Assembly (NCBI GenBank): GCA_965238075.1
Contig: OZ250173.1
Coordinates: 3,264,001 to 3,328,000 of the forward strand
Length of the DNA stretch: 64,000 nt
Direction: 5' to 3'
Origin: Candidatus Entotheonellaceae bacterium
GTDB lineage: Bacteria > Tectomicrobia > Entotheonellia > Entotheonellales > Entotheonellaceae
Under the pieces are notes generated by a model. It was not told the DNA's origin, ran no database searches, and saw nothing but the letters and a program-made list of their open reading frames with translations. The position numbers were made by a program, and so were the translations under genes. Shown piece by piece: positions 4,220 through 37,212 of this stretch. The first letter of the stretch is position 1, and each line of letters opens with the position of its first letter.

Positions 4220-5671
4220 TCAATTGTCCTTACCGAGAAACTCTCGGATACGCTCCATCAACGGTTCCTTGGGATACATACTGTACAGGAAACCAGCGCG
4301 GGCCAGCGGGTCGCCGGCAAAGAAACGCTCGTAGAGTACCTGTCGGCCGCCAAAGGCGCTACAGGCGACGTCCCACGCCAAGTGGAACAGTTGAACCCGC
4401 TCCCGAGCGGAGGCCGTGTCTGTGGCCAGATACCGCTCGATCTCTGCCGCCAACGGGGTCTCGAAATCCGCCTCGGACGGCAGGGCCATGAAGCTGCTCG
4501 ATCCCAGGAGTTGCAAAATTTCCACCATGCGGGAATAGACGCTCATGAACAGCGTGCGGATGGCTTCCAGCGGCAGCTCGTCGGGACACATCACGCCCCA
4601 CTGATCGACCCGCGCGTCCGCCTCGGCAGCGCGCAAGGAGGCTTTCATGACCTCCGTGTAGGTCATAAGCTCGGCCAGACGCTCCTTCACGTGCGGTAGT
4701 TCCTCCGAGCCCAGCGTGCGCGCCATGAGCAGGGCCACGCCCAGCACGAACTCGCTCTTCGCCACGTTCTTGACCGCCCCCTGATGAGCCGTGTGCACCG
4801 ACGAGTTGGTGGCGCGCGGCATGTCATTGAGCAGATCCGCGTCCCCCAACAAAAAGACCCGCTCCCAGGGCACGAAGACATCGTCGAAAAAGACCGTGGC
4901 GTCCATCTCCTCGAAGCGCGAGCCCAAGGGATGATCGAAGTGCGAGCGGCCCATATCGAAACTCTCGCGGCACAGAAATTTGATCCCCGGCGTGCTACAG
5001 GGAATGGCGAAATTGAGCACGTAGGCTTCCGATCCGGCGGCGTTTCCGCCTCCAAAACGGGGCGAGTAGACGGCGATTTCGTCGGCGATCGGCCCGAGTG
5101 TCGCCAGAATACGCGAGCCGTGCAGCACCAGGCCGGCGTCCGTTTCCCGCACCACGCGCAGCCCCACGCCCTCGGACAGCTGAGATTGGCCCGAGGTGCG
5201 CCGGCGCTGCAGGTTGATCAGGGCATGGGTCAAGGTCAGATCGTTTTCCCGGATGTACTCGTAGTACTGCCGGACGTGCGTTTTGAAGGCCGGACGGTTC
5301 TGGGCGAAATAATCCGCTGCGGCGCTCCAGGCGGCGAAATTGACGTTCAGAAAATCCGGTGAACGCCCCAGCATGCCGCATCCGGTGCGCGCCCAGCGCA
5401 TCATCATCCTGCCGCGCTGCTGGAGTTCGAGTTGCGTCTGCGGAATGATGAAGGAGTACCCTACCCGGTCGCCGGTGGTCGGTGACACATAGGTCATCTC
5501 ATCACGCAGCTCGGCGCGGGATTGCAAGTCGTAGAGGGCGGCCACAGTCTGCACACCCCCGCGCAACGCCGGATGCGTGGTGACGTCCGTAATCCGTTCA
5601 CCCCGCAGCCAGACCTCGCGCGGATGTTCCCGCAACCCGGTGATGTAATCCTGTCCCGTCCGTGCCGGCAT
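4220..5671 (-). CDS. hpaB: 4-hydroxyphenylacetate 3-monooxygenase, oxygenase component
   Basis: MPARTGQDYITGLR, GMLGRSPDFLN, SHFDHPLGSRFEEMDA, FGGRQVLYERFFAGDP. Confidence 0.88.
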   Translation of the reverse strand: MPARTGQDYITGLREHPREVWLRGERITDVTTHPALRGGVQTVAALYDLQSRAELRDEMTYVSPTTGDRVGYSFIIPQTQLELQQRGRMMMRWARTGCGMLGRSPDFLNVNFAAWSAAADYFAQNRPAFKTHVRQYYEYIRENDLTLTHALINLQRRRTSGQSQLSEGVGLRVVRETDAGLVLHGSRILATLGPIADEIAVYSPRFGGGNAAGSEAYVLNFAIPCSTPGIKFLCRESFDMGRSHFDHPLGSRFEEMDATVFFDDVFVPWERVFLLGDADLLNDMPRATNSSVHTAHQGAVKNVAKSEFVLGVALLMARTLGSEELPHVKERLAELMTYTEVMKASLRAAEADARVDQWGVMCPDELPLEAIRTLFMSVYSRMVEILQLLGSSSFMALPSEADFETPLAAEIERYLATDTASARERVQLFHLAWDVACSAFGGRQVLYERFFAGDPLARAGFLYSMYPKEPLMERIREFLGKDN

Positions 5672-10777: not shown

Positions 10778-10821
10778 TTGGTTTACTCACGCTCTCTGTC
10801 TGCCGATAAGGATGTTCAGCA

Positions 10822-11210
10822 ATGAACCACTCGCGTGACCGAGATTCCACCGGCTTCCTCGGCCATCGCCGCAGCTTATTTCGAGTCGCAGATGGGGTTG
10901 ACGACCGATTGCTGGGACGGGCATGAATCAATGAATGAGGGCACGCGGATTTCGTGTTGCTTGACGTGCGCAGCCGTGAGAATTTCCGGGAAGGTCATGT
11001 ACCGGGAAGCGTCGGCCTGCCGCACGCGGAGATTTCCGAAGCGGAGATGGGAAAATACCGTCGGATACCATCTTCGTTGTTTATTGTGCCGGACCGCACT
11101 GCAACGGCGCGTATCGTGAACGATCCGACTGGCTCACCTCGGCAGGCCCGTAAAAATGATGATCGGAGGGGTTACGGGTTAGCTGGCCGAGGGCTTTTCC
11201 TTGGAGGCCG
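10822..11210 (+). pseudogene. Rhodanese-like sulfurtransferase, multiply frameshifted
   Basis: Pieces in different frames: VTEIPPAS...TDCWD; DFVLLDVRS...GHVPG; FVVYCAGPHCNGA; GRPVKMMIGGVTG*LAEGF. Confidence 0.8.
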
Positions 11211-24084: not shown

Positions 24085-24277
24085 GGGCGCAGGCAACATG
24101 ACCATCGAACGGCGGACCGCCAGAGCGGCAGCGCCGCGGAAGCAGGAGTATCAATAGGAATCGGACAACTTGGACCGTAAGGCCCCGGTGGCGCCCCACG
24201 CAATCTGTGACTTGGTTATTGAGGTGTTCCAGGCCGAACCATCGCGCGGATTCGGACGCGATGGAGAGGAGGGTTAC

Positions 24278-24526
24278 GTGGTCTGGAAGGCAATCGGCAA
24301 CATCGCCGCCTTGGTGGGTGTGCTGGTGGCGATGGTCATGATGTTCAATCAGGTTGACGGGCGACTGGACTGCATGCAGACAGAGACAAACCCCCTCTTT
24401 GACCGCATGCAGACAGATACCAACGCCCGCTTTGATGCGGTGCTTGAGGCGATTATGAGCTTCGACCGCCGGGTCTCGCGCATCGAACGGCGTTTCGATG
24501 CCCATAGCACCGGGGCCGCCGAGTAG
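24278..24526 (+). CDS. Small TM + coiled-coil protein of the repeated leader (copy 1)
   Basis: GTG start after GGAGG; hydrophobic N-terminus, then heptad-like RLD/RMQ/RFD repeats; paralog at 33693-33917. Confidence 0.65.
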   Translation: MVWKAIGNIAALVGVLVAMVMMFNQVDGRLDCMQTETNPLFDRMQTDTNARFDAVLEAIMSFDRRVSRIERRFDAHSTGAAE

Positions 24527-24766
24527 GCATGCGGTCCCGCTGGCGGATTGGCGACCGCGGCTCGCGGCCGCTTAGAACTCCCCAACTGGCTGCCAAAAGA
24601 GGGCTGATGATACGGTTGACGTCCCACCGATTGCGGGCGAAATCGCCCCTTTCGCAACTTCCGGTGGGGCGTTCTGGAGTTCTCCGCGGCAAAATGGCGT
24701 AAGTCCAGCATCCACGCGGGTTTCCGGTGATGCTAAAGTTTACACATAGAGACTTATCAGAAGTTG
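24311..24766 (+). repeat. Leader/platform repeat, copy 1
   Basis: Aligns by eye with 33693-34158; the last ~300 bp are near-identical and similarity ends at the dif-like site. Confidence 0.92.
24737..24764 (-). other. dif/Xer-like site 1 (leader-proximal)
   Basis: Minus strand ACTTCTGATAA-GTCTCT-ATGTGTAAACT. Confidence 0.75.
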
Positions 24767-24780
24767 AAGGGAGAAATCTC

Positions 24781-25071
24781 ATGAGTGTATTCGCGCATCT
24801 GGTCACTTCTATGGGGTGGGGTGAACCTGAGGCGACGCAGGCCTTGGCTTATATCCTCCGCCAACAACCCGGCATTCTTCGGGCGTTCGTCAGCTTGCTC
24901 GGCGCGGCAGGCGTCACATTCAACCCCGGACGCATTGAGTTTGATGATAATGAGGTGTATTTGCCGGGCAACGACAAATACCTCCCCATCCGCCTCAAAC
25001 CTGGTGTTGAGCGAGAGAGGGTAGTTGAGGACGCGGTTGAGCAGATCCGCGCTGCTGTGTTCGGAGGTTGA
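24781..25071 (+). CDS. Cassette ORF, hypothetical protein (possibly internally deleted)
   Basis: RBS GAAGGGAG just after site 1; the TGA stop lies inside site 2. Confidence 0.55.
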   Translation: MSVFAHLVTSMGWGEPEATQALAYILRQQPGILRAFVSLLGAAGVTFNPGRIEFDDNEVYLPGNDKYLPIRLKPGVERERVVEDAVEQIRAAVFGG

Positions 25072-25094
25072 CATAAGACGGGATTATCCGAAGT
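25066..25094 (-). other. dif/Xer-like site 2
   Basis: Minus strand ACTTCGGATAA-TCCCGTC-TTATGTCAACC. Confidence 0.8.
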
Positions 25095-25222
25095 TGAGCG
25101 GGTATGACCTGCGCGGGGAACCAGCTCCTTTTTTTCCGGTTGACTTGCCGATTGAACATAGAAGATATTGGCCGCCGCTCAGGCACTTCGTCCTTGAATC
25201 ATCAAACGAAAGGGGGTCCGTT

Positions 25223-25398
25223 ATGCGCTGGATCGTGGTTTTGACGGTGCTCGCGGCGGGGCCACGATTGCCGAAGCACAGGCATTTCAAGGAATTGTGA
25301 TGGATGATGGCAATCGAAGCGTGACGTTCTCCAACTCGATGCTGGAGATCGGCTCCGATACGCTGAACAATCTCAGAGTCTGGCCCAAAATAAGTTGA
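25223..25398 (+). pseudogene. Remnant of a secreted-protein cassette gene
   Basis: RBS AGGGGG; MRWIVVLTVLAAG, then a frameshift to ATIAEAQAFQGIVMDDG...; truncated. Confidence 0.35.
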
Positions 25399-25620
25399 GC
25401 GATTTCGGTAGGTTGTGATTCGCTGGCATGACCAAGCCGCCACTGGCGAATCCCAAAGGACATCGGGACGACCGTTAATACCGCCCAAACGTGGCTCCTT
25501 CATCACCAGCGCAGATCTTCTCGTCTTTGGATTGGTAGAGCTATGAAAAACAATGCCTTATTTCGGGACGAACTCTTAACAAGGTTATATTTACGGACAC
25601 TACACTCTAGGGGTTGACCG

Positions 25621-26550
25621 ATGCGCGAGAGGATGATAACGGATGAGATCCGCATGAGCGACGGCGCACCCATTATCCTGCGGAGGCTCGGGAACCCCAA
25701 GGGCTTGCGGCTTGTGGTCAGTCACGGCAACGGCTTGGCGGTCGACGCCTATGAGTCGTTCTGGAGGCTGCTCTCGGACCGGTTCGATCTGATCCTCTAC
25801 GACGTCAGGAACCACGGGCGGAATCCGGTGGGAGATCTCGCCGCGCACAACATGGCCCAACTGATCGACGACACCGTGACTGTCGCGCAGGCCATCGACC
25901 GGACGTTTGGCCGACGGCCGCGGGTCGGTGTCTTCCACTCGTTGGCCGCTCTCCTGTGCCTGTTGCCGGGCGCGGAAGCGCACGGCTATGCGGGCCTGGT
26001 GCTGTTCGATCCGCCGGTGGCGCCGGATGCGGACTCGGCGAGCCGCCTGCTGAAGATGAGGCGGAAGCGGGTCGAGCAGGCGCGGCAGCGGCAGGCGGAC
26101 TTCGACACGTGGGAGGATCTGGCGGACGTCTACCGGAGCGCCGCGCCGTTTCGCTTGCTGCCGCCGAGAGCCGTCGAGCGGCTCGCGCAGGCAACGCTCC
26201 GGCCGCGCGGGCCGACGGGCTTCACGCTCTGTTGTCCGCCTGCGTTCGAAGCCAAAATATACGAGGAGAGCATCGCTTGGTCAACGCGCGTTGACTTCGA
26301 CCGTATCCGGTGTCCCGTAAGGGTAATCGGCAGCGATCCGGTGCTCCCCTTCTCGTTCCTTCCAAGCGTCGATCTGAACGAGATCGTGAAGCTGGACTAC
26401 GATTTCCTGCCCGATGCAACGCACTTCCTGCAACTCGAGAAGCCCGGGGAGTGTGCGCTGTTGGTGCGGGACTTCCTCGACACCCTGGAGAGCGACCGAT
26501 GCAGGGGCGCAACAGCGGACCTGGCCGGCGGCGGGCCGGAGACATCGTGA
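25621..26550 (+). CDS. Alpha/beta hydrolase
   Basis: SHGNGL, YDVRNHGRN, nucleophile elbow GVFHSLAA, THFLQLEKP. Confidence 0.85.
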   Translation: MRERMITDEIRMSDGAPIILRRLGNPKGLRLVVSHGNGLAVDAYESFWRLLSDRFDLILYDVRNHGRNPVGDLAAHNMAQLIDDTVTVAQAIDRTFGRRPRVGVFHSLAALLCLLPGAEAHGYAGLVLFDPPVAPDADSASRLLKMRRKRVEQARQRQADFDTWEDLADVYRSAAPFRLLPPRAVERLAQATLRPRGPTGFTLCCPPAFEAKIYEESIAWSTRVDFDRIRCPVRVIGSDPVLPFSFLPSVDLNEIVKLDYDFLPDATHFLQLEKPGECALLVRDFLDTLESDRCRGATADLAGGGPETS

Positions 26551-26680
26551 ACCGGACTCGCCTTGGGGCCTTCCATCGGGGAACCTTCAGGCAGCAGACC
26601 TGCGACCTGCGGCCTGTCGGTGGTAAGCCGAACCGCCGGTCACCTGCCACGGGGCCGGAAGTGCTGTGAGGTGGATTCGC

Positions 26681-27729
26681 ATGCGGACACCGCCGGAACG
26701 TGAACGAGGGGAACCTCAGGTGTCGTTGGCGTTCTCACAGATGATCATGGGGGCTTGGGTGCCCCAGGTCATCTATACCGCAGTCTCGCTCGGGGTCTTC
26801 TAGAACCTCCACGCCGGGCCGCGTTCCGGCGCCGAGATAGCAAACGAGATTGGTGTTCCGCTCGCGACCACGAATCGGCTGCTGCGCGCCCTCGTTTGCC
26901 TCGAATTGTGCAGCGCGTCCGAGTCCGACACCTTCGCACTCATGCCGGGGGGACGATTACTTTGCGCGGAGACGCCGGGCTCGATGCGCTCGCTGGCGCT
27001 GCTCCGGGGCCGAGGGAGCGTCTGGTCGGCGTGGGGCAGGCTGCTGGACGTTGTTCGCACGGGGAAAACGGCTCCGGAGCTGGTCGCCGGGAAAGGCATC
27101 TACGAGTGGCTGGCCGACGATCCGGCCGGTTTCAATGTCTTCAACCAGGCGATGACGGAGCTGAGCATCGCCCAGGCGTAGGCGGTCCCGATGCCTTTGA
27201 CTTTTCGGATGCCCACGTCATCGTGGATGTCGGTGGGGGCTACGGTGCGCTCCTCATGGCGATACTCATGAGGTACGGCGACGCCAGCGGCGTCGTCTTC
27301 GATCGCTCCACGTGCCGTGAGGGATCGGAACGGTTGATCGCGCAGACCGGACTGTCGGATCGCTGCAGGTTCGTCGGTGGCGACTTCTTCAAGTCGGTGC
27401 CCGTGGGGGGCGACATATACCTGCTCAAGAACGTGATCCACAATTGGGACGACGATTGGAGCATGACCATCCTGCGAACCTGCCGCACGGCCATGAGCGG
27501 AGATTCACGCCTGCTGCTGATTGAGCCGATCGTGCCCGAACAGATCACCGCGTCGCTCGCCGACACTGTAGTGGTCGCATTCGATTTGCATATGCTGCTG
27601 TTGACCGGCGGTTGCGAACGCACCGAAGAGCAGCATCGGTCGCTGTTGCAGGCAGCCGGGTTCGACGTGATGCGCATCGTGCCGACATCGTCGGCGCTCA
27701 ACCTGATCGAGGCGCGCCAGACGGCTTGA
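26681..27729 (+). pseudogene. SAM-dependent O-methyltransferase (dimerisation + methyltransferase domains), disrupted
   Basis: In-frame TAG at 26801 and a frameshift near 27180; VDVGGGYG, GGDFFKSVP, LLKNVIHNWDD, GGCERTEEQ. Confidence 0.85.
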
Positions 27730-27732
27730 CTC

Positions 27733-27913
27733 GGCATTGTCGAACAAGAGCCATTGTGAAGGATGTGTTGAAACTTTCAAATGGTGGCAAGAGTGCGATG
27801 GGTCGAGTCGACCGGGTTCCATCTCATGCAGCCACCTCGAACAGCTTGTTGATGAACTGAATCTGTTGCCGAAGATCCGAACCGCTCACCCACCGCGCTT
27901 GCCCCTTCCGGAT
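27733..27913 (-). mobile_element. IS6-family right-end remnant
   Basis: Minus strand IRKGQARWVSGSDLRQQIQFINKLFEVAA* resembles IS6 transposase C-termini; the end GGCATTGTCGAACAA resembles IS6 IRs. Confidence 0.6.
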
Positions 27914-28165
27914 CTGGCGGCGGCCCTGGGCCTGAACGGCCTCGGGGGCTTCGGAGGCTTCGCGGGCGGCGGCGGGGACGCGCCGATGGGCGGCACGGAG
28001 TTCCTGTTCGCGTGGGGCGGGGCTGGCAGTTCTGGGGCCAGGGCGACATCCAGACGTTCGCGGGCGAGCCGGCGGTCGAGCGGCGCTACGAGGGCGGCAT
28101 GCGCCTCGAAACCGAGCTGACGGCCATGCATCCCTACCTGGGCTGGTCGAACGGGGCCACGTCGG

Positions 28166-28269
28166 TGTGGACGAAGTCGGCGGCGCAGATCCTCGAGAAG
28201 GTGGACCGAGCCCGGAAGGCCCTCGCCGCCGTCTCCCGCATAGGAGGCTGTGTTCGGACACTACACTAG
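28166..28269 (+). mobile_element. IS630-family transposase C-terminus and right end
   Basis: WTKSAAQILEKVDRARKAL...LH*, ending in GGACACTACACTAG (TA-terminated). Confidence 0.7.
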
Positions 28270-28334
28270 ATATCATGCTAGGATGGACTCGACATGCGGC
28301 GACCGTCAAGTTCGCCGCCAGGGGGAATGATGAC

Positions 28335-28622
28335 ATGGCAGCCTACGTGATCATGGATATCGAGGTAACCGACCCTACCAGCTACCGTGGTTTTCTGGAG
28401 CAGGCGGCGGCAACGGTTGCAGCGCACGGCGGCAAGTATCTCGTGCGCGCCGGCGCCACGACAGTCCTGCAGGGCAACTGGCAACCTCATCGCCTCGTGG
28501 TGGTGGAGTTCGACAGCGCCGAGCAGGCGAGACAATGGAGAAACTCGCCGGACGCCACTCACGCCAGAGAGATGCTCAACAGGTCGTCCAACACGAACAT
28601 GATAATTGTCGAGGGCGATTAA
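28335..28622 (+). CDS. DUF1330-family protein
   Basis: MAAYVI, HGGKYLVRAG, RLVVVEFDSAEQARQW, IIVEG. Confidence 0.88.
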   Translation: MAAYVIMDIEVTDPTSYRGFLEQAAATVAAHGGKYLVRAGATTVLQGNWQPHRLVVVEFDSAEQARQWRNSPDATHAREMLNRSSNTNMIIVEGD

Positions 28623-28777
28623 CGCCGCGCTACGGTGGGCGGACCGGTTGTGGTGCAACTTTGGCCGACGGCGGCTGGTAACCGGAAGAGATCATGAAAA
28701 AAGACAATCCGACTGGCGATCTTCAAGTGGCGACAGACGCGGCCGCGGGTGCTGCCGCTGGTAATCAGGTGAATGCG

Positions 28778-30043
28778 ATGAGCCGCGCTCAGCGCTACGA
28801 CTGCGCGGTCATCGGCGGCGGGCCCGCGGGCGCGACGGCGGCGACGGTGTTGGCACAGCACGGCCGGCGCGTGGTGGTCATCGAGCGCGAGCGCTTTCCG
28901 CGCCACCACGTCGGCGAATCGCTGATGCCGTACACTTGGTTTACGTTCGAGCGGCTCGGCGTGCTCGACTGGTTCACGGAAGCCGCCTGTCCTCAGAAAT
29001 ACAGCGTGCAATTCGTCCCGACCTCCGGCAAGGTGTCGCAGCCATTCTATTTCTTCGAGACCATCAAGCACCCTTGCGCCACCACCTGGCAGGTGCTTCG
29101 CAGCGACTTCGACCGGATGCTGCTCGACAACGCGCGCGCCAAGGGCGTCGAGGTGCGCCAGGGGGCGGTGGTCCGCGAGGTGCTCATGGAAGGCCAGCGC
29201 GCCGTCGGTGTCCGGGCTGACCTAACCGGGGGCGGATCCGAGACGTTCTCGGCCGACGCGGTGATCGACGCGTCCGGACGCAACTCGTTCCTGGCCTCCA
29301 GGCTCGGCATGAAGCGGCGCGACCCCGACCTGAACAAGATCGCCATATTCACCTACTACCGCGGCGCCCGGCGCGACCCAGGGCTCGACGCGGGAGCCAC
29401 CACCGTCGCCTACATCCCGCACAAGGGCTGGTTCTGGTACATCCCGCTGCCGGACGACATCGTCAGCGTCGGCGTCGTGGCCGAGAAGGACTATCTCTAC
29501 CGCGACACGCGCGACCCCGAGGACATCTTCGCACGCGAGGCGGCGGCGTGCATCTGGATCGAGGACCACCTGCGGCCGGGAACGCGCGTCGAGCCGGTGC
29601 GCGTCACCGGCGAGTTCAGCTACCGGGCCGAGGCTATCGGGGGGGACGGCTTCTGTCTGGCGGGCGACGCGTTCTCGTTCCTCGACCCGGTCTTCTCGAC
29701 CGGCCTGTTCATGGCGCTCAAGAGCGGGGAGATGGCGGCGGACGCCGTCCACCAGGGTCTCGACAGCGGCGGGGTTACCGCCGCGACGTTCGAGGAGTAC
29801 GGGCGCCAGATGCGCTGGGCGCTCGACCAGTTCCGGCAGCTCGTGCTGTCGTTCTACAATGAGCGGTTCAGCTTCCGCGAGTTCATCCGCGCCTACCCGG
29901 ACATGCACCCGCGGCTGGTCGACGCGCTGGTCGGCAACGTTTTCTCCGATCTCGGTCCGCTGATCGACGCGCTCCGCGACTTCTTGGCGCGGGAGCCATC
30001 GACCGGCGCCTCGGCGATCGACCCGCCGGCTGTCAGCGCCTAG
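28778..30043 (+). CDS. Flavin-dependent halogenase-family protein
   Basis: GGGPAG, FPRHHVGESL, conserved Lys in CPQKYS, WxWxIP (GWFWYIP), GDAFSFLDPVFSTG; start may be 28694. Confidence 0.85.
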   Translation: MSRAQRYDCAVIGGGPAGATAATVLAQHGRRVVVIERERFPRHHVGESLMPYTWFTFERLGVLDWFTEAACPQKYSVQFVPTSGKVSQPFYFFETIKHPCATTWQVLRSDFDRMLLDNARAKGVEVRQGAVVREVLMEGQRAVGVRADLTGGGSETFSADAVIDASGRNSFLASRLGMKRRDPDLNKIAIFTYYRGARRDPGLDAGATTVAYIPHKGWFWYIPLPDDIVSVGVVAEKDYLYRDTRDPEDIFAREAAACIWIEDHLRPGTRVEPVRVTGEFSYRAEAIGGDGFCLAGDAFSFLDPVFSTGLFMALKSGEMAADAVHQGLDSGGVTAATFEEYGRQMRWALDQFRQLVLSFYNERFSFREFIRAYPDMHPRLVDALVGNVFSDLGPLIDALRDFLAREPSTGASAIDPPAVSA

Positions 30044-30385
30044 CAGCCCGTGGAAGAAACGGGTCTCCAGAGCGTCAGGTGGCGGAAGGGGGCCAGCACC
30101 CAGGCGGCGGTGAGTTTGTGCCGACGGCGGGTTTTGCAGCTTGAAGACCCGGCGATCGGGCTGAAAAGGCCAATATGACGGCGAAAGTGGCGAAGAATGT
30201 GCAGAAAACGGTGCTGACATGACCCGCGAGCGCCGCTTGCGCCGCGGCGAGCCCCTGCAGAGCCCGCGGGGTGCCAAAACGTGCGTGCGGCGGCAGCCCG
30301 GCCAACCGCTGGCCGCGGTCGGCAGCCCGCCGGAAATCGTCCGACGCCTACGCGCCGCGAACGACGGCTCCGGGACGGACGCTCC

Positions 30386-31705
30386 ATGACCCGGGACGCC
30401 GGGGCGGTTCCAGCAACCGAGCGGCTGCCGCGCGAGACGCTGGCCGCGCTTCAAGGCGAGCGCCTGACACGGCTGCTCGGCTATATCCACGCACGGAACC
30501 GGTTCTACACCCGCAAACTGACGGATGCGGGCATCGATCCCGCGCAGCTTGTCCTGCCGCGTGATCTCGCCGCGCTGCCCTTCACCACCAAGGCGGAGCT
30601 GGTGGCCGATCAGGCCCAGGCGCCGCCGTGGGGCACCGTGCTTACCGAGCCGCTCGTGCGCTACACCCGTTACAACCAGACCTCGTCCACGACCGGCCGA
30701 CCGCTGCGCTGGCTCGACACGACGGAGAGCTGGCAATGGATGCTCGACTGCTGGCAGGCGGTCTACCGCGGCGCCGGCGTCGGCGCCGACGACCGCATCA
30801 TCTTCCCGTTCTCGTTCGGACCGTTCCTCGGATTCTGGACGGCGTTCGACGCGGCCACCCAGCTCGGGGCGCACGCCATTCCGGCCGGCGGGATGACGAG
30901 CCACCAGCGACTCGCCCTGATTAGGTCGCTGGCGCCCACCGTGGTCTGCTGCACGCCGACCTACGCGCTGCGGCTGCTCGACGTGGCGCGCGAGGCGGAT
31001 GGCGTCGACAACGCGCTGGCCGATACTGCCGTCCGCACCGTCATCGTCGCCGGCGAGCCGGGCGGCAGCATTCCGGCCACGCGCCAGCGGATCGAGCGCG
31101 GCTGGGGGGCGCGGGTCATCGACCACCACGGGTTGACCGAGGTCGGCCCCATCAGTTTCGAGTGCCGGGAGGCCCCGGGGTTCCTGCACGTCAACGAACG
31201 CGAGTACATCGCCGAGATGCTCGACCCGGAGTCGGGACAGCCGGCGGCGGACGACAGCCGCGGCGAGCTGGTCATCACGAACCTCGGGCGCACCGCCAGC
31301 CCGTTGATCCGCTACCGTACGGGCGATCTGGTCGTCGCGACGCACGAGCCGTGCGCCTGCGGGCGTACGTTCGTGCGCCTCGTGGGCGGCATTGTGGCGC
31401 GCGCCGACGACATGGTCAACATCCGCGGGACGAACGTCTATCCGACTGCCGTCGAAGAGGTTCTGAGCGCAATCGACGCAGTAGTCGAGTACCGCTGCAC
31501 GGTGCGGACGGCAGCCTCGATGCGCGCGCTCGCCGTGGAGGTCGAGGTGGGCCGCGGCGCCGATGAGGCCGCGGTGACGGCGCTGGTGTCGCAAAACCTG
31601 CGGAAAGCGCTCGGCCTGAACGTCCAGGTCACGCCGGTCGCCGCCGGCACGCTGCCGCGCTTCGAGATGAAGGCGCGCCGATTTGTCGTGGAACGCAGTT
31701 CATAA
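30386..31705 (+). CDS. Phenylacetate-CoA ligase family protein
   Basis: LPFTTKAEL, QTSSTTGRP, AGEPGG, HGLTEVGP, PLIRYRTGD, RADDMVNIRGTNVYP. Confidence 0.88.
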   Translation: MTRDAGAVPATERLPRETLAALQGERLTRLLGYIHARNRFYTRKLTDAGIDPAQLVLPRDLAALPFTTKAELVADQAQAPPWGTVLTEPLVRYTRYNQTSSTTGRPLRWLDTTESWQWMLDCWQAVYRGAGVGADDRIIFPFSFGPFLGFWTAFDAATQLGAHAIPAGGMTSHQRLALIRSLAPTVVCCTPTYALRLLDVAREADGVDNALADTAVRTVIVAGEPGGSIPATRQRIERGWGARVIDHHGLTEVGPISFECREAPGFLHVNEREYIAEMLDPESGQPAADDSRGELVITNLGRTASPLIRYRTGDLVVATHEPCACGRTFVRLVGGIVARADDMVNIRGTNVYPTAVEEVLSAIDAVVEYRCTVRTAASMRALAVEVEVGRGADEAAVTALVSQNLRKALGLNVQVTPVAAGTLPRFEMKARRFVVERSS

Positions 31706-31709
31706 TCTG

Positions 31710-31933
31710 AAGCGTCGTAACATGCTGGGGCTCCGCGCGCCGGACAGGCAAACCCCGCCAGAACCTCGTAGCGGTCCTGGGCGTAGGCATGACGAAAACC
31801 GTGTGTGCCGTTCAGCCCGATGCTCTTGCGGGGACTCTGCCACAGGCCGTCACGGTAGTCTTTGTACGACAGCGACGACGGGATCAGCGAGCCCTTGCCC
31901 GCCACCGCCTTGGCATGGTCCAGGGCCTTGCGC
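31710..31933 (-). pseudogene. Tyrosine recombinase C-terminal fragment
   Basis: GSLIP...HGFRHAYAQDRYEVLAGFACP (HxxRH box); bounded by the ISKra4 end. Confidence 0.7.
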
Positions 31934-33348
31934 GGGAGCACCAAAAAGTGTGGGACAGTCAGGCAGCGCGTGGTTCAGCTTCAGCTGACCTGTCCCCGGC
32001 CTTCATTCCCGGGTACCACTGCTCGAACTTCTCCCTGAGCGTGCCGTCGAGGGTCCGCGTCCGGACTTGCAGCATGAGATGCGCCCCGCCTTTCGACCAC
32101 CGCATCTGCTGACGCTTGCCAAACCGTTTGCCGACAACCGTGTTGATGGCACTCTCCACAAACCGTGGAAACGCGCTCGCCGTAGCGCCGCCGTTCGGCA
32201 TAGTTGGGAATCAAGCCCGCGTTGCTGCGGATGTAGGTATCGAACTCGCCGGCAGCTTTCCTGAGTGCCTTCATGCCCGGGTAGTCGGTCTTGATGCCTT
32301 CCAGATCCAAGACGAGTTCCGTGATCGCACGACGGCCGTCGTGCAGATTCCCATTCCACAGGCCGCCTTTGATGCGGCGCAGAAGCCGATCCACGGCTTC
32401 CGCTTCATCCGAATTTGAGTGGCTCAGCCCTCTGACATACTGGCGCATGACGGTGATGCGCATGGTGATGTAGAACCAGTCGAGCAGGTGCTCGGACGCC
32501 GGGGCCATGTAACGCGCCATGTTCCTGACCGTGTCGCCGCCATCGGTCAGGTGACAGGCTGGTTTTCCTGCCATCCCTGCTCCTTCAGGACCTCGTGCAG
32601 CCGCCGCCGTGGCCGGGTGTCGTGGGACTGCACGAGACCGAGGTAACGGTTTGGCTTGTCCACGGGCATGGACTTGGCGACCATGACCTCGAAGTGCGTG
32701 TTCCTTGTCCCGCGAGCGCACATAGCCGCCATCGATTCCGACCGTGATGGAGTCTTCCGGCAGCGGCATGGCGGCCCGCTCCTGCGGGCACGTTTCGATG
32801 AAGAAGAACTGTTCATCTGCCAGTTCGCCTTCCATGCGTTTGGCCGCCATGTGAAGATGGTTACGCACGGTCTCGGCGCTCAGGCCCTCGCCGATGGGCA
32901 GGACATCCTTGAGAAGATGGGTCGCGGCGCCGAACGAGACCAGCGAGGCCCACCTGGTTTCCAGCCACAGCAGTTCCGGTGCCGTGTGGTCCGGAGGCAA
33001 GTCGTTCAGAGGGCTGAAGGTGTTTGGGCGACGGCCGTCGCAGGCACATTGGCAATACCGCGGGCTTGTGACTGAGATATCACCGAAGACCATGCGGTAA
33101 CGGATGGCGCGGCTGCCCTTTTTGCGCAGCCGCAGACCGCAGCCAGGACAGACCGACTTCGAGGCGCAGTATGCCTCCGCCTGGGCCGTAACGATCTCGT
33201 GTTGCAGGGACTTCAGCAGTGCTTTGCCTTCGGCGATTGACAGGCCGGTCTCTTCGTGCCGATCATGTCCCTTGTCGAGAATGATGACCTCGCGCTCCCG
33301 TATCTCACCGTCCGGGGTTGTCACGCGTAGGGTGATCTCGAATTTCAT
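31934..33348 (-). mobile_element. ISKra4-family transposase, frameshifted, with right end
   Basis: CPGCG zinc motif, VGIDGGYVR, TDGG, LDWFYITMR, FVESAINTVVGKRFGKRQQMRWS; true reading frame switches at least three times; end GGGAGCACCAAAAAGTGTGGG. Confidence 0.85.
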
Positions 33349-33561
33349 GGCTGTCCTCCCCAGGCAAGGGGTTTTCCAGAATCCGGGGAGAGGAAAATCC
33401 GCGTTTCACTGGATGGCGTTTTCTGCCATGCCATGGCGTCGGATTGCCCTCTTCGGTCCTCATCTTTGTTTTCGGCCTTTGAGTAGTAATGGAACAGAAA
33501 ACTGTGTTAAGCCTTGCTGAGTTGACGGCCGGCGTCTTTCGGTGAGCCAGTGTCGTTGGCG

Positions 33562-33693
33562 TCATTGAGCTCGGGGAATGAGATGGCGAGAGCGCATGAA
33601 ATGATAGAGCGTTGAGCGATCTACCCCGGTGATCTTGGCAATCAACGCCTTTGAGACCTTGAGGTCCAGGAGCCTTTGAATTTCGTCTTCCTT
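33562..33693 (-). pseudogene. Serine resolvase C-terminal HTH fragment
   Basis: KEDEIQRLLDLKVSKALIAKITGVDRSTLYHFMRSR; lies upstream of the ISKra4 transposase and abuts leader copy 2. Confidence 0.65.
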
Positions 33694-34158
33694 TGGTGGG
33701 TTTGTTCGTGGCGATGGTTACCCTGTTCAACGGTGTCGACGCGCGCGTCGACGCCTTGAACGACCGCATGGACCGCATGCAGGCTGAAACCAACCTGGGC
33801 TTTGAAGCCGTCAATGCACGCTTCGACAAGGCTTTTGAGGCGATCATGAGTTTTGACCGCCGGGTCTCCCGCATTGAAGGGCGTCTCGATGCCCATAGCG
33901 CCGGGGCCGCCGAGTAGTCATGCGGTCCCGCTGGCGGATTGGCGACCGCGGCTCGCGGCCGTTTAGAACTCCCCAACTGGCTGCCAAAAGAGGGCTGATG
34001 ATACGGTTGACGTCCCACCGATTGCGGGCGAAATCGCCCCTTTCGCAACTCCCGGTGGGGCGTTCTGGAAGTCTCCGCGGTAAAATGGCGTAAGGCGAGC
34101 ATCCACGGGGGTTCCCGGTGATGCGAAAGTTTACATATAATCGTCTTATCGGAAGTTG
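33693..34158 (+). repeat. Leader/platform repeat, copy 2 (5'-truncated small ORF at 33693-33917)
   Basis: Paralogous to 24311-24766; the ORF ends EAIMSFDRRVSRIEGRLDAHSAGAAE. Confidence 0.92.
34128..34156 (-). other. dif/Xer-like site 3 (leader-proximal)
   Basis: Minus strand ACTTCCGATAA-GACGATT-ATATGTAAACT. Confidence 0.8.
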
Positions 34159-34217
34159 GATATTCCTAGGTGCCGTAGTGGATATAGACCTTATATCTGG
34201 AACTAAGTGAGGTATTG

Positions 34218-35035
34218 ATGACTGATTTTGCGACTGATGGGTTTTTGAGCGATGAGATATTACGATACGAGAGTCAGCACATCGATACTCTGACGAACTG
34301 GACCTGGCTAAAAGCGTCAATCGAGTTGCCCATACTGCAATCCGGTCGATACGGATCGATCGGACTCAATCAAGCGTGCTTCTTCTGGCATCTCTGCTGG
34401 TGCGTCAAGTAGAGACGTTCCAAGCCTTCTTAATCCTCATCGGAAAGGGTCTCATTCCTCAGTCTGCAATACTTCTGCGAAACATGGCAGAGTCGATGTT
34501 CATTGTGGGGGCTATCGGTAAAGATCAGACCTTTGCAGAAAGCTACATCCAGTCTGAGGATTTACCTCGCCTGAAGGTCCTCAGAAAATTAAGGGAAACC
34601 AGTCTGCGTAGGGGCAATGCACCAGATCCGGAACTGGATACCTCAATTGGAGAGCTTGAGAAAAAAACTGGGAAGGGAAAAATCTGGCAGACGATAGAAA
34701 TAGCCAAAGTTGCTGAGTTGACCGACTATTACGACACCCTGTATCGGTTTATGAGCATGACGGTACACACGTCGCCACGAAGCCTAAACGAAATACTTGT
34801 CGTAGGTTCAAATGGTGACGTCGAAGCATTGAACTACGCACCCAAGGTGGAGAATCTTGAGGTCCACCTTGCATGTGCAATAGACATGATGTCTTACACG
34901 CTACACGAAATAGCAACCCATTTCTCGCTTGACCCTGCGCGAATAGGGCTTGAAGAAGTGCACCAAAGACTTCGAACCCTCGACATCCCTTTTGCCATGG
35001 AGAAACACGGGCATAAACCTCACCGCCAAGGGTGA
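34218..35035 (+). pseudogene. Cassette A: DUF5677-like (HEPN-like) protein, one frameshift near 34275
   Basis: MTDFATDGFL..., then HRYSDELDLAK...ILLRNMAES...YDTLYRFMSMTVH; TGA inside site 4. Confidence 0.6.
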
Positions 35036-35057
35036 CATATAAGGGCTTATCGGAAGT
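35030..35057 (-). other. dif/Xer-like site 4
   Basis: Minus strand ACTTCCGATAA-GCCCTT-ATATGTCACCC. Confidence 0.8.
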
Positions 35058-35075
35058 TGGGGGAGGAGTATCTGA

Positions 35076-35772
35076 ATGAGTGATGGCAACTTGAATCCAG
35101 AAACGACCCTGCAACAGGCTTTGGATCGATCCCTGGTCATACAGGAACAGATCAACACGCTTTTGAATGACCCTGGGCTTTTCATTCCCTCTCTGCCAAC
35201 GAACAAGCAAACGCAGATCGCCTGTGGCTTGTTCGGCCTCACGATCGACCAAGCTTGGAGTGTTACCCTTGAACCTTGGAGTGTTACTCCAGAACGAACG
35301 ATATGGTGCAGCTTTGGCGCTGACACGCCCTGTTCTCGAAGCCTGCTGCAGGGGGAAATGGATCAGATACCATGCAAAAAAGAGAACCATTGAGACCTTC
35401 TCATCCAACAATTTTCCCGACACGCCCTCTCTCATCAAGAAGACAATGAGCCGTGTTGCTGGCCTTAACGGGGGAGCGGATGACTTTGTCTTAAATGTCT
35501 ACCGATGGCTAAGCGACTACACGCATGGCGGGGTTCGCATGCTCAGGATGCAACTGTCCGAGACCGGCGTCGCCTCAGAGTACAACTTGGAAGAAGTGAG
35601 AAAAGCTCTGATGGTATCAGACGTGATGCAGATACAAGCAGCTAGCGAATTGCTCGACTTCGCCCGGTGCAAAAACGACAACGACTGCCAATCATTGAGA
35701 GGAACACACAACCAGTGCAAGCGGTTTCAAGCTGATATGGAAAAAATACGCCATCTTCTGAAGTTGCTATAG
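35076..35772 (+). pseudogene. Cassette B: HEPN-like (DUF5677/DUF6988-like) protein, frameshifted near 35254-35290
   Basis: RBS GGAGGAG; ALALTRPVLEACCRGKW, YRWLSDYTHGG; TAG overlaps site 5. Confidence 0.6.
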
Positions 35773-35798
35773 ACGACATAAAACGGCTTATCAGAAGT
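35771..35798 (-). other. dif/Xer-like site 5
   Basis: Minus strand ACTTCTGATAA-GCCGTT-TTATGTCGTCT. Confidence 0.78.
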
Positions 35799-35851
35799 TA
35801 GGGGGATAACCCTCAGAACGCGAAGAATGTGACCAAAATAAGGAGAAGCCG

Positions 35852-37189
35852 ATGAGTGCAGCAGCAGAAAGCAACACAAGGAACGTTCTGGAAAAAATAA
35901 GTGAGGTAGTAAAACAATCAGCCGATGGCGACTACATCTTTCGTGGCGAACCTAAACACTATCCCAAAGTGTCATCGAGCCTTTACCGCCAGTACCCTGA
36001 GGTTGAGACGGAACATTTCGATATAGAGGTTGTCCAAAGAGAACTTTTGCAGGAGGCGAAAAGACATGCAGATGAACCCGACGACTTTGAAATCCTGACC
36101 CAACTCCAACATTATGGCGGCGACACAAACCTTATTGACTTTACGGCTGACTTTCTCATAGCTCTGTTCTTTGCCTGTGACAGGCACTTCGACATGGATG
36201 GCAGAGTGATCCTGCAGCGAAGGGAACCGATCGAAGATCAACTGAAGGAACCTCGTCACCCAAGAAATCGCGTCATCTCTCAGAGAAGCATATTCATTCA
36301 ACCGCCAAAGGGCTTCATTGAGCCAGACCATGTTGTCTTAATCCCAAAAGACCTTAAACAGCCCATTTTAAACCACTTGCGAAAGTACCATGGCTTATCC
36401 AATGCAACCATCTACAACGATCTTCATGGGTTTATCACCAATCAACGCAACCATAAGAGTGCTTATAGGGAGTTTTACAGAGGTCTTACCTGCCAGGAGA
36501 AAGGCAATCATGACAAAGCGACACATCATTACACCAAGGCCATTGAACTGAATCCGAACCTTGCTGCCGCCTACAACAACCGCGGTATTGCCTACGGGAA
36601 AAGAGGCGAGCTTGACCGAGCCATCGAAGATTGCACCAAGGCCATTCAACTGAATCCGAACCTTGCTGAGGCTTACAGCAACCGCGGTACTGCCTACCAG
36701 AATAAGGGCGAACTTGGCCGAGCCATCGAAGACTACACCAAGGCCACTGAACTGAATCCGAACCTTGCTGAGGCTTACAACAGCCGCGGCGCTGCCTACC
36801 AGAATAAAGGCGACCTTGGCCAAGCCATCGAAGACTACACCAAGGCCATTGAACTGAATCCAAATCATGCTGAGGCTTACAACAACCGCGGCGTTGCCTA
36901 CGGGAATAGAGGCGAGTTTGGCCCGGCCATCGAAGACTACAACAGGGCCATCGAACTGAATCCAAATTATGCTGAGGCTTATTACAACAGCGGCATTACT
37001 TTGTTATCGCGGGAAGAATGGGACAGGGCCAAATCAAAGTTATGTACTGCCGAGAACGAGGGAATAGATATCATCGCTGCGTTTCAGAGTGAGTACAAAA
37101 GTGTTACAGATTTCGAGAGTCAACATGGCGTGGATGTGCCCAAAGACATCACAGCAATGCTAACGCCAAGAGAGGGCGCGTCAGGTTGA
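35852..37189 (+). CDS. Cassette C: FRG-domain protein with TPR repeats
   Basis: YIFRGE, SSLYR, LQHYGGDTNLIDFT..LIALFFAC, RVISQRSIF; 34-aa TPRs; TGA inside site 6. Confidence 0.88.
   Translation: MSAAAESNTRNVLEKISEVVKQSADGDYIFRGEPKHYPKVSSSLYRQYPEVETEHFDIEVVQRELLQEAKRHADEPDDFEILTQLQHYGGDTNLIDFTADFLIALFFACDRHFDMDGRVILQRREPIEDQLKEPRHPRNRVISQRSIFIQPPKGFIEPDHVVLIPKDLKQPILNHLRKYHGLSNATIYNDLHGFITNQRNHKSAYREFYRGLTCQEKGNHDKATHHYTKAIELNPNLAAAYNNRGIAYGKRGELDRAIEDCTKAIQLNPNLAEAYSNRGTAYQNKGELGRAIEDYTKATELNPNLAEAYNSRGAAYQNKGDLGQAIEDYTKAIELNPNHAEAYNNRGVAYGNRGEFGPAIEDYNRAIELNPNYAEAYYNSGITLLSREEWDRAKSKLCTAENEGIDIIAAFQSEYKSVTDFESQHGVDVPKDITAMLTPREGASG
36533..36990 (+). repeat. 102-bp tandem repeats encoding TPRs
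   Basis: ACCAAGGCCATTGAACTGAATCC-like units at 36533, 36635, 36737, 36839 and 36941. Confidence 0.9.
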
Positions 37190-37212
37190 CATAACGCGGG
37201 GTTATCAGAAGA
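37184..37212 (-). other. dif/Xer-like site 6 (array-distal)
   Basis: Minus strand TCTTCTGATAA-CCCCGCG-TTATGTCAACC. Confidence 0.78.

Follow-up and report, generated by a model that had tools for sequence, protein, structure and literature searches.

Leader-headed arrays of dif-like sites as probable docking platforms for gene cassettes on a Candidatus Entotheonellaceae chromosome

Sites and cassettes of the two window arrays

We analyzed a stretch of 64,000 nucleotides (the window) from a Candidatus Entotheonellaceae bacterium, corresponding to bases 3264001-3328000 of a single 3.35-Mb contig with 62% GC. The source genome (G000) was compared with the five other genomes of its genus (G001 to G005). 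The window carries two arrays of dif-like sites, all read on the plus strand. The first begins with a structured non-coding leader (leader d, 24614..24736), followed by a primary site, D1 (24737..24764), one cassette gene, and a cassette-end site, D2 (25066..25094). The second is headed by another copy of the leader (leader e, 34005..34127) and continues with the primary site E1 (34128..34156), three cassettes with the cassette-end sites E2 (35030..35057) and E3 (35771..35798), and the terminal site E4 (37184..37212). On the best reading, the region comprises two of eight platforms on the chromosome at which mobile gene cassettes dock; a platform of this kind, present at several loci and with a leader of its own, is specific to this genus.

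On the plus strand, each site consists of a left arm ending in ACATA, a spacer, and a right arm, TTATCNGAAGT. From general knowledge of dif sites, we take the left arm to be of the XerD type and the right arm to be of the XerC type; at D1, the former faces the leader and the latter the cassette. Assuming arms of 11 nt, the spacer measures 6 or 7 nt and is one nucleotide longer in three of the six sites, including D2 (7 nt). An earlier note, made from the letters of the window, had proposed six sites of 28-29 bp on one strand, and all six are found where it placed them. The core TTATCRGAAG, with up to one mismatch allowed, has nine matches in the window against 3.10 +/- 1.81 in shuffled sequences, and none of 100 shuffles reached nine. 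Six of these matches are the sites; the matches at 10800, 42531, and 46331 lie on the opposite strand with one mismatch each and were rejected as sites. For the genome-wide search, a loose regular expression was dropped as too permissive (132 matches versus 95 in the reversed genome) in favor of a weight matrix of two arms, for which 15 sites were taken by coordinate. Applying a score cut-off of 30, we identified 27 sites in the 3.35-Mb genome and none in the control, the reversed sequence searched on both strands; 15 of the 27 are the training sites, which match by construction, and 12 are new. The six sites are real and far beyond chance, and the possibility that the motif occurs at random, which the same note had raised against itself, is not borne out.

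Each of the four short intervals in the window holds one plus-strand gene with a ribosome-binding site (RBS). The genes start at 24781, 34218, 35076, and 35852, that is, 17-62 nt after the preceding site, and their stop codons fall within the left arm of the following site or at its edge (TGA at 25069-25071, TGA at 35033-35035, TAG at 35770-35772, and TGA at 37187-37189). The cassette D gene (24781..25071) encodes 96 aa without a recognized family; its ATG stands 17 nt after D1 and its TGA inside D2. In the second array, cassette 1 carries a DUF5677 gene (34218..35035), cassette 2 a gene of DUF6988, which is related to DUF5677 (35076..35772), and cassette 3 a gene for a 445-aa protein with an FRG domain and five TPR repeats (35852..37189). 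The latter repeats are visible in the DNA as four to five tandem 102-nt units at 36477-36986 with 76-80% identity. The genes of cassettes 1 and 2 are frameshifted in the window: the first becomes one open reading frame (ORF) with 4 nt added after 34276, and the second a single frame with 13 nt removed at 35272. The contigs of three public runs show exactly these differences, both of which join the halves of each gene in one open frame; the window sequence therefore reflects either an assembly error or a strain with two pseudogenes.

The three-cassette array has a GC content of 0.46-0.51, compared with 0.60-0.71 around it, and cassette GC ranges from 0.42 to 0.65 against 0.62 for the genome. 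The 9 kb between the two arrays (25095-34127) are not a cassette and consist of host-like DNA (GC 0.60-0.71) plus an ISKra4-family transposase gene on the minus strand (31981..33348), of which window positions 32424-33236 are absent from G005. Just 3' of D2, at 25372-25576, lies a repeat of ~200 nt that has many copies across the genomes of the genus (72-95% identity).

To describe the cassettes more broadly, we surveyed 38 intervals of up to 6 kb across the genus. The cassettes ranged from 77 bp to 4.3 kb, and the longest ORF was co-oriented with the array in 24 of the 34 ORF-holding intervals. The rule that each interval holds exactly one gene ending in the next site, as had been proposed from the window, holds for its four short intervals and fails across the genus, where a plus-strand ORF ending in the next site was found in 13 of 38. 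A family scan covered 53 of 71 candidate ORFs, with the 18 shortest (63-97 aa) excluded and one minus-strand ORF swapped for an RBS-supported gene. It identified Sel1 repeat proteins (3), TPR proteins (3), MmeI-type IIG restriction-modification enzymes (2), DUF5677 (2), DUF3187 (2), DDE transposases (2), a ThsB TIR protein (1), a TacA antitoxin, an ADP-ribosylglycohydrolase, and a group II intron maturase. Several cassette genes are anti-phage or host-interaction genes. The group II intron reverse transcriptase/maturase gene lies in a 4.3-kb cassette of the array at 0.45 Mb (G000 445000-450500, L201), a setting reminiscent of the group II introns that target integron attC sites. Gene-less mini-cassettes of 77-82 bp between two sites were also observed in G001 (L165 ~4770-4879; L033 ~10900-11010) and G003 (L036, L037), those of G001 containing a strong G+C hairpin followed by a T run, resembling an intrinsic terminator.

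We then examined the relation of these sites to the chromosomal dif, using an exact-pattern search of 41 genomes (the six of the genus and 35 outside it) with the reversed pattern as a control. The site at 3139041 in G000 has a 23-nt core that is identical in all six genomes of the genus, and it and its counterparts lie 19-20 kb from xerD in each of them. In G000, the cumulative GC skew, which is weak, peaks ~200 kb away from it. We take this site to be the true dif; it is ~150 kb from the window sites. The other sites share its arms, and the window sites, which had been called dif-like from their architecture, match the host dif in both arms and are copies of the genus's own dif. The search identified 12, 15, 7, 22, 1, and 5 sites in G000 to G005, respectively, the sole site of G004 being its true dif, whereas the 35 genomes outside the genus had 0-3 and the reversed pattern gave none in all 41. 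The window sites thus belong to an expansion of dif-like sites that is specific to the genus. In a separate pattern scan of named genomes, the listed matches were mostly ordinary dif sites of many phyla.

G000 has 26 sites besides dif, most of them in eight arrays. Across the sites compared, two classes can be distinguished. Among the primary sites (24 compared), the XerD-type arm hardly varies, with a mean consensus frequency of 0.93, and the spacer is A/T-rich. The other class (40 sites) has a XerD-type arm whose outer half is variable (0.40-0.78), and its G/C-rich spacers fall into a few recurring types. The XerC-type arm is conserved equally in both classes (0.84 in primary and 0.83 in other sites).

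The leader and its platforms

Each array is headed by a conserved non-coding leader of ~125 nt, with the primary site a few nucleotides after it. The first part of the leader is an almost invariant stem, P1 (CCCCACCG/CGGTGGGG), around a variable hairpin, and the second part is a long second hairpin. The regions of the two window leaders (24421-24720 for d and 33812-34111 for e) are 91% identical, and more diverged copies stand upstream of other sites. We ran a covariance model representing the leader and its site on 14 genomes of the family, namely the six of the genus and eight from other genera. Leaders d and e were matched at G000:3288614-3288771 (153 bits) and G000:3298005-3298163 (145.9 bits), respectively. 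Matches of at least 37 bits numbered 8 in G000, 9 in G001, 15 in G003, 5 in G005, and 3 in G002; nothing above 29.3 bits was found in G004, and the eight genomes from other genera gave no match.

All eight leaders of G000 end a few nucleotides before a site, at 450041, 1320915, 2078845, 2476057, 2655915, 3066946, 3288735, and 3298126, the last two being window positions 24735 and 34126. The platforms accordingly stand at 0.45, 1.32, 2.08, 2.48, 2.66, 3.07, 3.289, and 3.298 Mb, with dif at 3139041. Each array of this genome consists of a leader, a primary site, and then 0-3 low-GC cassettes. Sites downstream of a primary site share its orientation across the genus, with one scored exception in G001. 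Cassette arrays had been recognized in the earlier note, but the leader, the special primary site, and the eight platforms had gone unseen.

Support for the leader fold comes from an alignment of 33 copies, itself fitted to the covariance model, in which 76.2% of cells were paired versus 38.6-48.2% with the partners slid, and two-sided changes occurred in 50 cells versus 29.7 +/- 3.7 in shuffles (none of 500 reached 50). The second hairpin was drawn from single-sequence folds and tested afterwards, and RNAalifold with default settings on the first leader alignment returned the P1 stem only, without compensatory change. Leader e folds at -67.9 kcal/mol on the plus strand (z = -2.3), compared with z = -0.9 on the opposite strand. 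Because the helices contain many G-U pairs, which become A-C mismatches on the other strand, and because the plus strand folds better, the modeled structure points to the cassette-sense strand, either as RNA or as single-stranded DNA.

Searches against Rfam at gathering and permissive thresholds returned nothing for the leader (best E-value 1.5) and only one tRNA in the window, and a sigma-70 promoter scan of both window leaders gave no match. Many primary sites have a perfect TATAAT in the spacer; no matching -35 box was found, so a built-in promoter stays speculative. A terminator-like hairpin precedes the cassette-end site in just 3 of 40 cases. A small ORF of 118 aa without a recognized family lies upstream of leader d (24170..24526, plus strand), and the 3' part of a second copy lies upstream of leader e (33693..33917, plus strand). 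It was rejected as a fixed part of the platform: it is found upstream of four of the eight leaders in G000, and also elsewhere and in the array-less G004.

In G000, G001, G002, and G005, 18 of 25 platforms point in the same direction relative to dif on one replichore and in the opposite direction on the other (binomial p 0.04, with orthologous arrays not being independent). With this bias, cassette genes would mostly run head-on to replication. Leader-headed arrays were also found on an independent metagenome contig (L289/L253), which carries two convergent arrays of 1 and 5 cassettes; the terminal sites of the facing arrays are inverted and ~35 bp apart. A metagenome scan with the P1 stem, of which 80 of 100 matching stretches were inspected, yielded two with real leaders, representing one sequence in two records.

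Variation among relatives and the route of exchange

The array of three cassettes lies between the TRAP transporter genes dctP and dctQM, and this locus is present in all six genomes of the genus, with flanks that are 84-96% identical and a differing cassette content. G005 holds three other cassettes, G001 five, G002 two, and G003 at least three plus three on two contigs; in G004, the locus has no leader and no site and is occupied by an insertion sequence (IS) and a higBA pair. Identity between G000 and G005 ends in the spacer of the primary site, and homology with G005, G002, and G003 resumes within the terminal site, E4. Window positions 24402-25240, corresponding to platform d and its cassette, are absent from G005.

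A second locus, array B at 2.08 Mb, has one cassette with an IS5-type insertion in G000 and three cassettes in G001, with neither leader nor site at the corresponding locus in G004. In G002, the flanks of array B lie at different loci ~0.8 Mb apart (2744141-2749431 and 1938496-1942299), one ending in a site and the other adjoining a weak leader match, suggesting that recombination between arrays rearranges the chromosome. The insertion in array B (G000:2077235-2078517) is a multi-copy IS5-family element with its own ends, and at G001:170667-171835 a copy of it abuts a leader where the primary site would be expected. Arrays tolerate or attract IS insertions.

Cassettes are also shared between different arrays. 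A 218-bp cassette of a G001 array is 94% identical to one in a G003 array at a different locus. The shared block extends from the right (XerC-type) arm through the next left arm and part of the spacer, and the upstream left arm and spacer differ, which places the exchange point beside the XerC-type arm. Similarly, a cassette of array C in G000 matches a G003 array over 1250 nt at 95.6% identity. The comparison between relatives that the earlier note had suggested reveals differing cassettes, breaks of homology at the sites, and the same cassette in different arrays. Public runs, available as contigs, give a similar picture: in one RNA-library run, contigs part from the window directly after each of the two primary sites (loose ends at 24766 and 34159), and in run X3 the summed depth of the three cassettes is 4.8-20 compared with 41-98 for the flanks. 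Since related strains are added together in these depths, what they reveal is strain-to-strain variation, not movement inside a single strain. A sponge-metagenome run also holds a small share of the window stretch.

We next considered which enzyme could act on the sites. In G000, five proteins or fragments matched Phage_integrase, namely XerD, XerC, and three fragments of two broken genes, and none of the five is near an array. XerD scored 370 bits on TIGR02225 (cut-off 329.6), and XerC, which adjoins trmFO, scored 337.5 on TIGR02224 (cut-off 335.15). The host xerC and xerD, whose inspection had been advised in the earlier note, are thus both canonical and encode the sole intact tyrosine recombinases of this genome; both are present in all genomes of the genus. 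On the integron-integrase model TIGR02249 (cut-off 265), XerD reached 150.5 and XerC 112.4, indicating that G000 has no IntI. As single-stranded DNA, the six site regions folded no better than shuffles (z -1.75 to +0.24), indicating no attC-like hairpin. That the system would lack IntI and attC had been anticipated from the window.

The best explanation, which we consider reasonably probable, is an integron-like cassette store on which the host XerC and XerD act in trans. A cassette would be a short piece of foreign, lower-GC DNA, often a single gene with its own RBS, whose unit would start with the conserved XerC-type arm and end with its own variable XerD-type arm and spacer. With this layout, one complete dif-like site would be present on each cassette in free circular form. 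Host XerC and XerD would integrate these circles at the primary site and also release them, with exchange at the border between the spacer and the XerC-type arm. Exchange would involve a single strand, catalyzed by XerC, completed by replication and independent of FtsK. The differing spacers, the degenerate XerD-type arms of cassette sites, and the distance of the arrays from the terminus all argue for such a one-strand route. Such a XerC-first, FtsK-independent route, known for CTXphi-type elements and, by analogy, for integrons, is the likely one here. Differing spacers would also guard the chromosome against deletions between an array and dif. The leader may serve either as an accessory element for recombination or synapsis, or as a sense-strand RNA governing cassette expression.

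Several observations weigh against this proposal. G004 encodes XerC and XerD and has no array, showing that the presence of Xer is not enough for arrays to arise. Only G001 and G003, in which sites are most numerous, encode a FimB/FimE-like tyrosine recombinase of 198 aa (G001:2542334-2542930; G003 contigs C10 and C160; 142-147 bits on Phage_integrase) within 10 kb of weak leader copies. Neighboring sites have differing spacers, and classical two-step Xer excision requires matching ones, according to the portions consulted of two papers (PMC11705084, PMC13141974). Orthologous primary sites of G000 and G005 also differ in their spacers, which a pure XerC-side exchange does not predict. Support for the leader fold is moderate, with the outer helix paired in just 55.8% of cells. 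Close homologues of cassettes 2 and 3 occur in G001, G005, and G002 without flanking sites. Finally, no circle or empty junction was seen in the contigs, the only run data examined, which could not show them.

Some of these points would fit a different reading, in which the arrays are real site-specific cassette stores driven by a recombinase other than the host XerC and XerD, such as the FimB-like enzyme of G001 and G003, a Xer paralogue borne by a phage or plasmid, or an enzyme since lost from G000. We consider this unlikely; in its favor are the proximity of the FimB-like gene to weak leader copies in the site-richest genomes and a dif-like array of another phylum (L042) that directly follows a tyrosine recombinase gene. 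However, G000, G002, and G005 have arrays of differing content without the small FimB-like enzyme, XerC and XerD are the only intact enzymes of the type in G000, and the sites match the host dif in both arms. FimB-type enzymes, moreover, are known to act on short inverted repeats and not on dif-like sites.

Less probable still is that the arrays are fossils of Xer-exploiting integrations, now immobile, and that the species have come to differ through deletion and homologous recombination. Degenerate sites, the IS elements and group II intron inside arrays, the two frameshifted window cassettes, and the lack of observed circles or empty junctions (in contigs, which could not show them) would all agree with such decay. 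However, the sites in which the breakpoints lie are 28 nt long, too little for efficient homologous recombination; different species have cassettes of 94-96% identity in different arrays; conservation of the XerC-type arm and of the leader extends over 33 copies; and the contigs of three runs lack the frameshifts. The reading of the sites as ends of IS elements or miniature inverted-repeat transposable elements, integron attC sites, or chance matches is suggested by short repeats at gene boundaries and nearby IS copies but is highly improbable and largely refuted by the weight-matrix result (27 sites versus 0), the lack of a transposase linked to the sites (the IS of array B being IS5-type with its own ends), the unremarkable site folds, and the absence of an Rfam family and of an integron integrase.

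Comparison with known systems

[quoted passage not shown] The last are the textbook route by which bacteria capture and reshuffle single genes, and a derivation from Xer-type recombinases is assumed for their integrase. As in integrons, among which we count sedentary chromosomal ones and integrase-less CALIN clusters, mostly co-oriented single-gene cassettes, often without a promoter, line up behind a fixed platform site; each bears a recombination site at its 3' end, with the crossover at one conserved edge of the site; the cargo likewise includes defence genes and parts of toxin-antitoxin systems. In contrast, there is no IntI here, and a structured leader stands at the place of intI and Pc. 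The sites are double-stranded, dif-like, and 28-29 bp long, whereas attC sites are folded hairpins of 57-141 nt. Furthermore, G000 has eight platforms, compared with one per genome in integrons.

IMEXs such as CTXphi, VGJphi, TLCphi, and the gonococcal genetic island, as the excerpts describe them, also use dif-like attachment sites without a recombinase of their own, stack in tandem in one orientation, and tolerate non-matching spacers through the exchange of one strand. However, they integrate at the chromosomal dif, whereas the arrays described here lie ~70 kb to 1.5 Mb from dif at dedicated platforms. IMEXs are also multi-gene phages, satellites, or islands, in contrast to the cassettes of this genus, which are mostly single genes or empty units of 77-82 bp.

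The dif modules of Acinetobacter (pdif or xrs, on Rep_3/OrfX plasmids) use the host XerCD as their enzyme, according to the sections seen of two papers (PMC13141974, PMC11705084). These sources likewise describe 28-bp XerC/XerD-type sites that bound small accessory modules shuffled between replicons. The modules are plasmid-borne, however, whereas the arrays lie between conserved chromosomal genes of the genus, on one contig of 3.35 Mb. C and D modules alternate in Acinetobacter (PMC13141974, in the part available), whereas all six window sites and nearly all array sites of the genus are direct; the contrast drawn in the earlier note, with plasmid-borne sites of alternating orientation, agrees with this account. 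Excision of Acinetobacter modules, in the same excerpts, needs direct sites with matching spacers, and the spacers here differ. In addition, each array of this genus begins with a leader plus a special primary site, unlike the Acinetobacter modules.

Like the primary sites, the plasmid dimer-resolution sites cer and psi have a Xer core flanked on one side by a conserved accessory region of more than 100 bp. Exchange at cer and psi is XerC-first, and the accessory DNA lies on the XerC side and is required on both partners. By contrast, the leader lies on the side of the XerD-type arm and accompanies primary sites only, and its G-U-rich pairing points to one strand, as RNA or single-stranded DNA. 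The FtsK independence of cer and psi is stated in PMC11705084.

Tight arrays of direct dif-like sites were also observed in three records of Ectobacillus panaciterrae (L085, L078, and L154) and in Candidatus Versatilivorator (L042). In L085, six sites fall within 3.2 kb and small genes separate them; in L042, three sites directly follow a tyrosine recombinase gene. These observations suggest that arrays of dif-like sites are widespread across phyla.

More tentatively, and as a possibility that we would not yet call probable, the system may be a Xer-run counterpart of the integron, in which the leader would license FtsK-independent, XerC-first capture of single-gene circles by the housekeeping XerC and XerD or control their expression, and through which a sponge-associated lineage would stock anti-phage and eukaryote-like repeat proteins. 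Together with the arrays of Bacillaceae and Versatilivorator, it could then be one face of a widespread, undescribed class of cassettes and may resemble the ancestor of integrons. If so, the housekeeping machinery for dimer resolution can itself act as a gene-capture engine, the system would offer a living model for the origin of integrons, and searching for arrays of dif-like sites would be a new way to locate accessory and defence genes in uncultured bacteria. The conserved leader is new as a structured element, and its role can be tested; rebuilding the system in E. coli would take two proteins and two sites.

As to its kind, the system would belong to Xer-exploiting mobile DNA and is set apart from integrons, as it has neither IntI nor attC, from IMEXs, as it does not reside at dif, and from the plasmid-borne modules of Acinetobacter.

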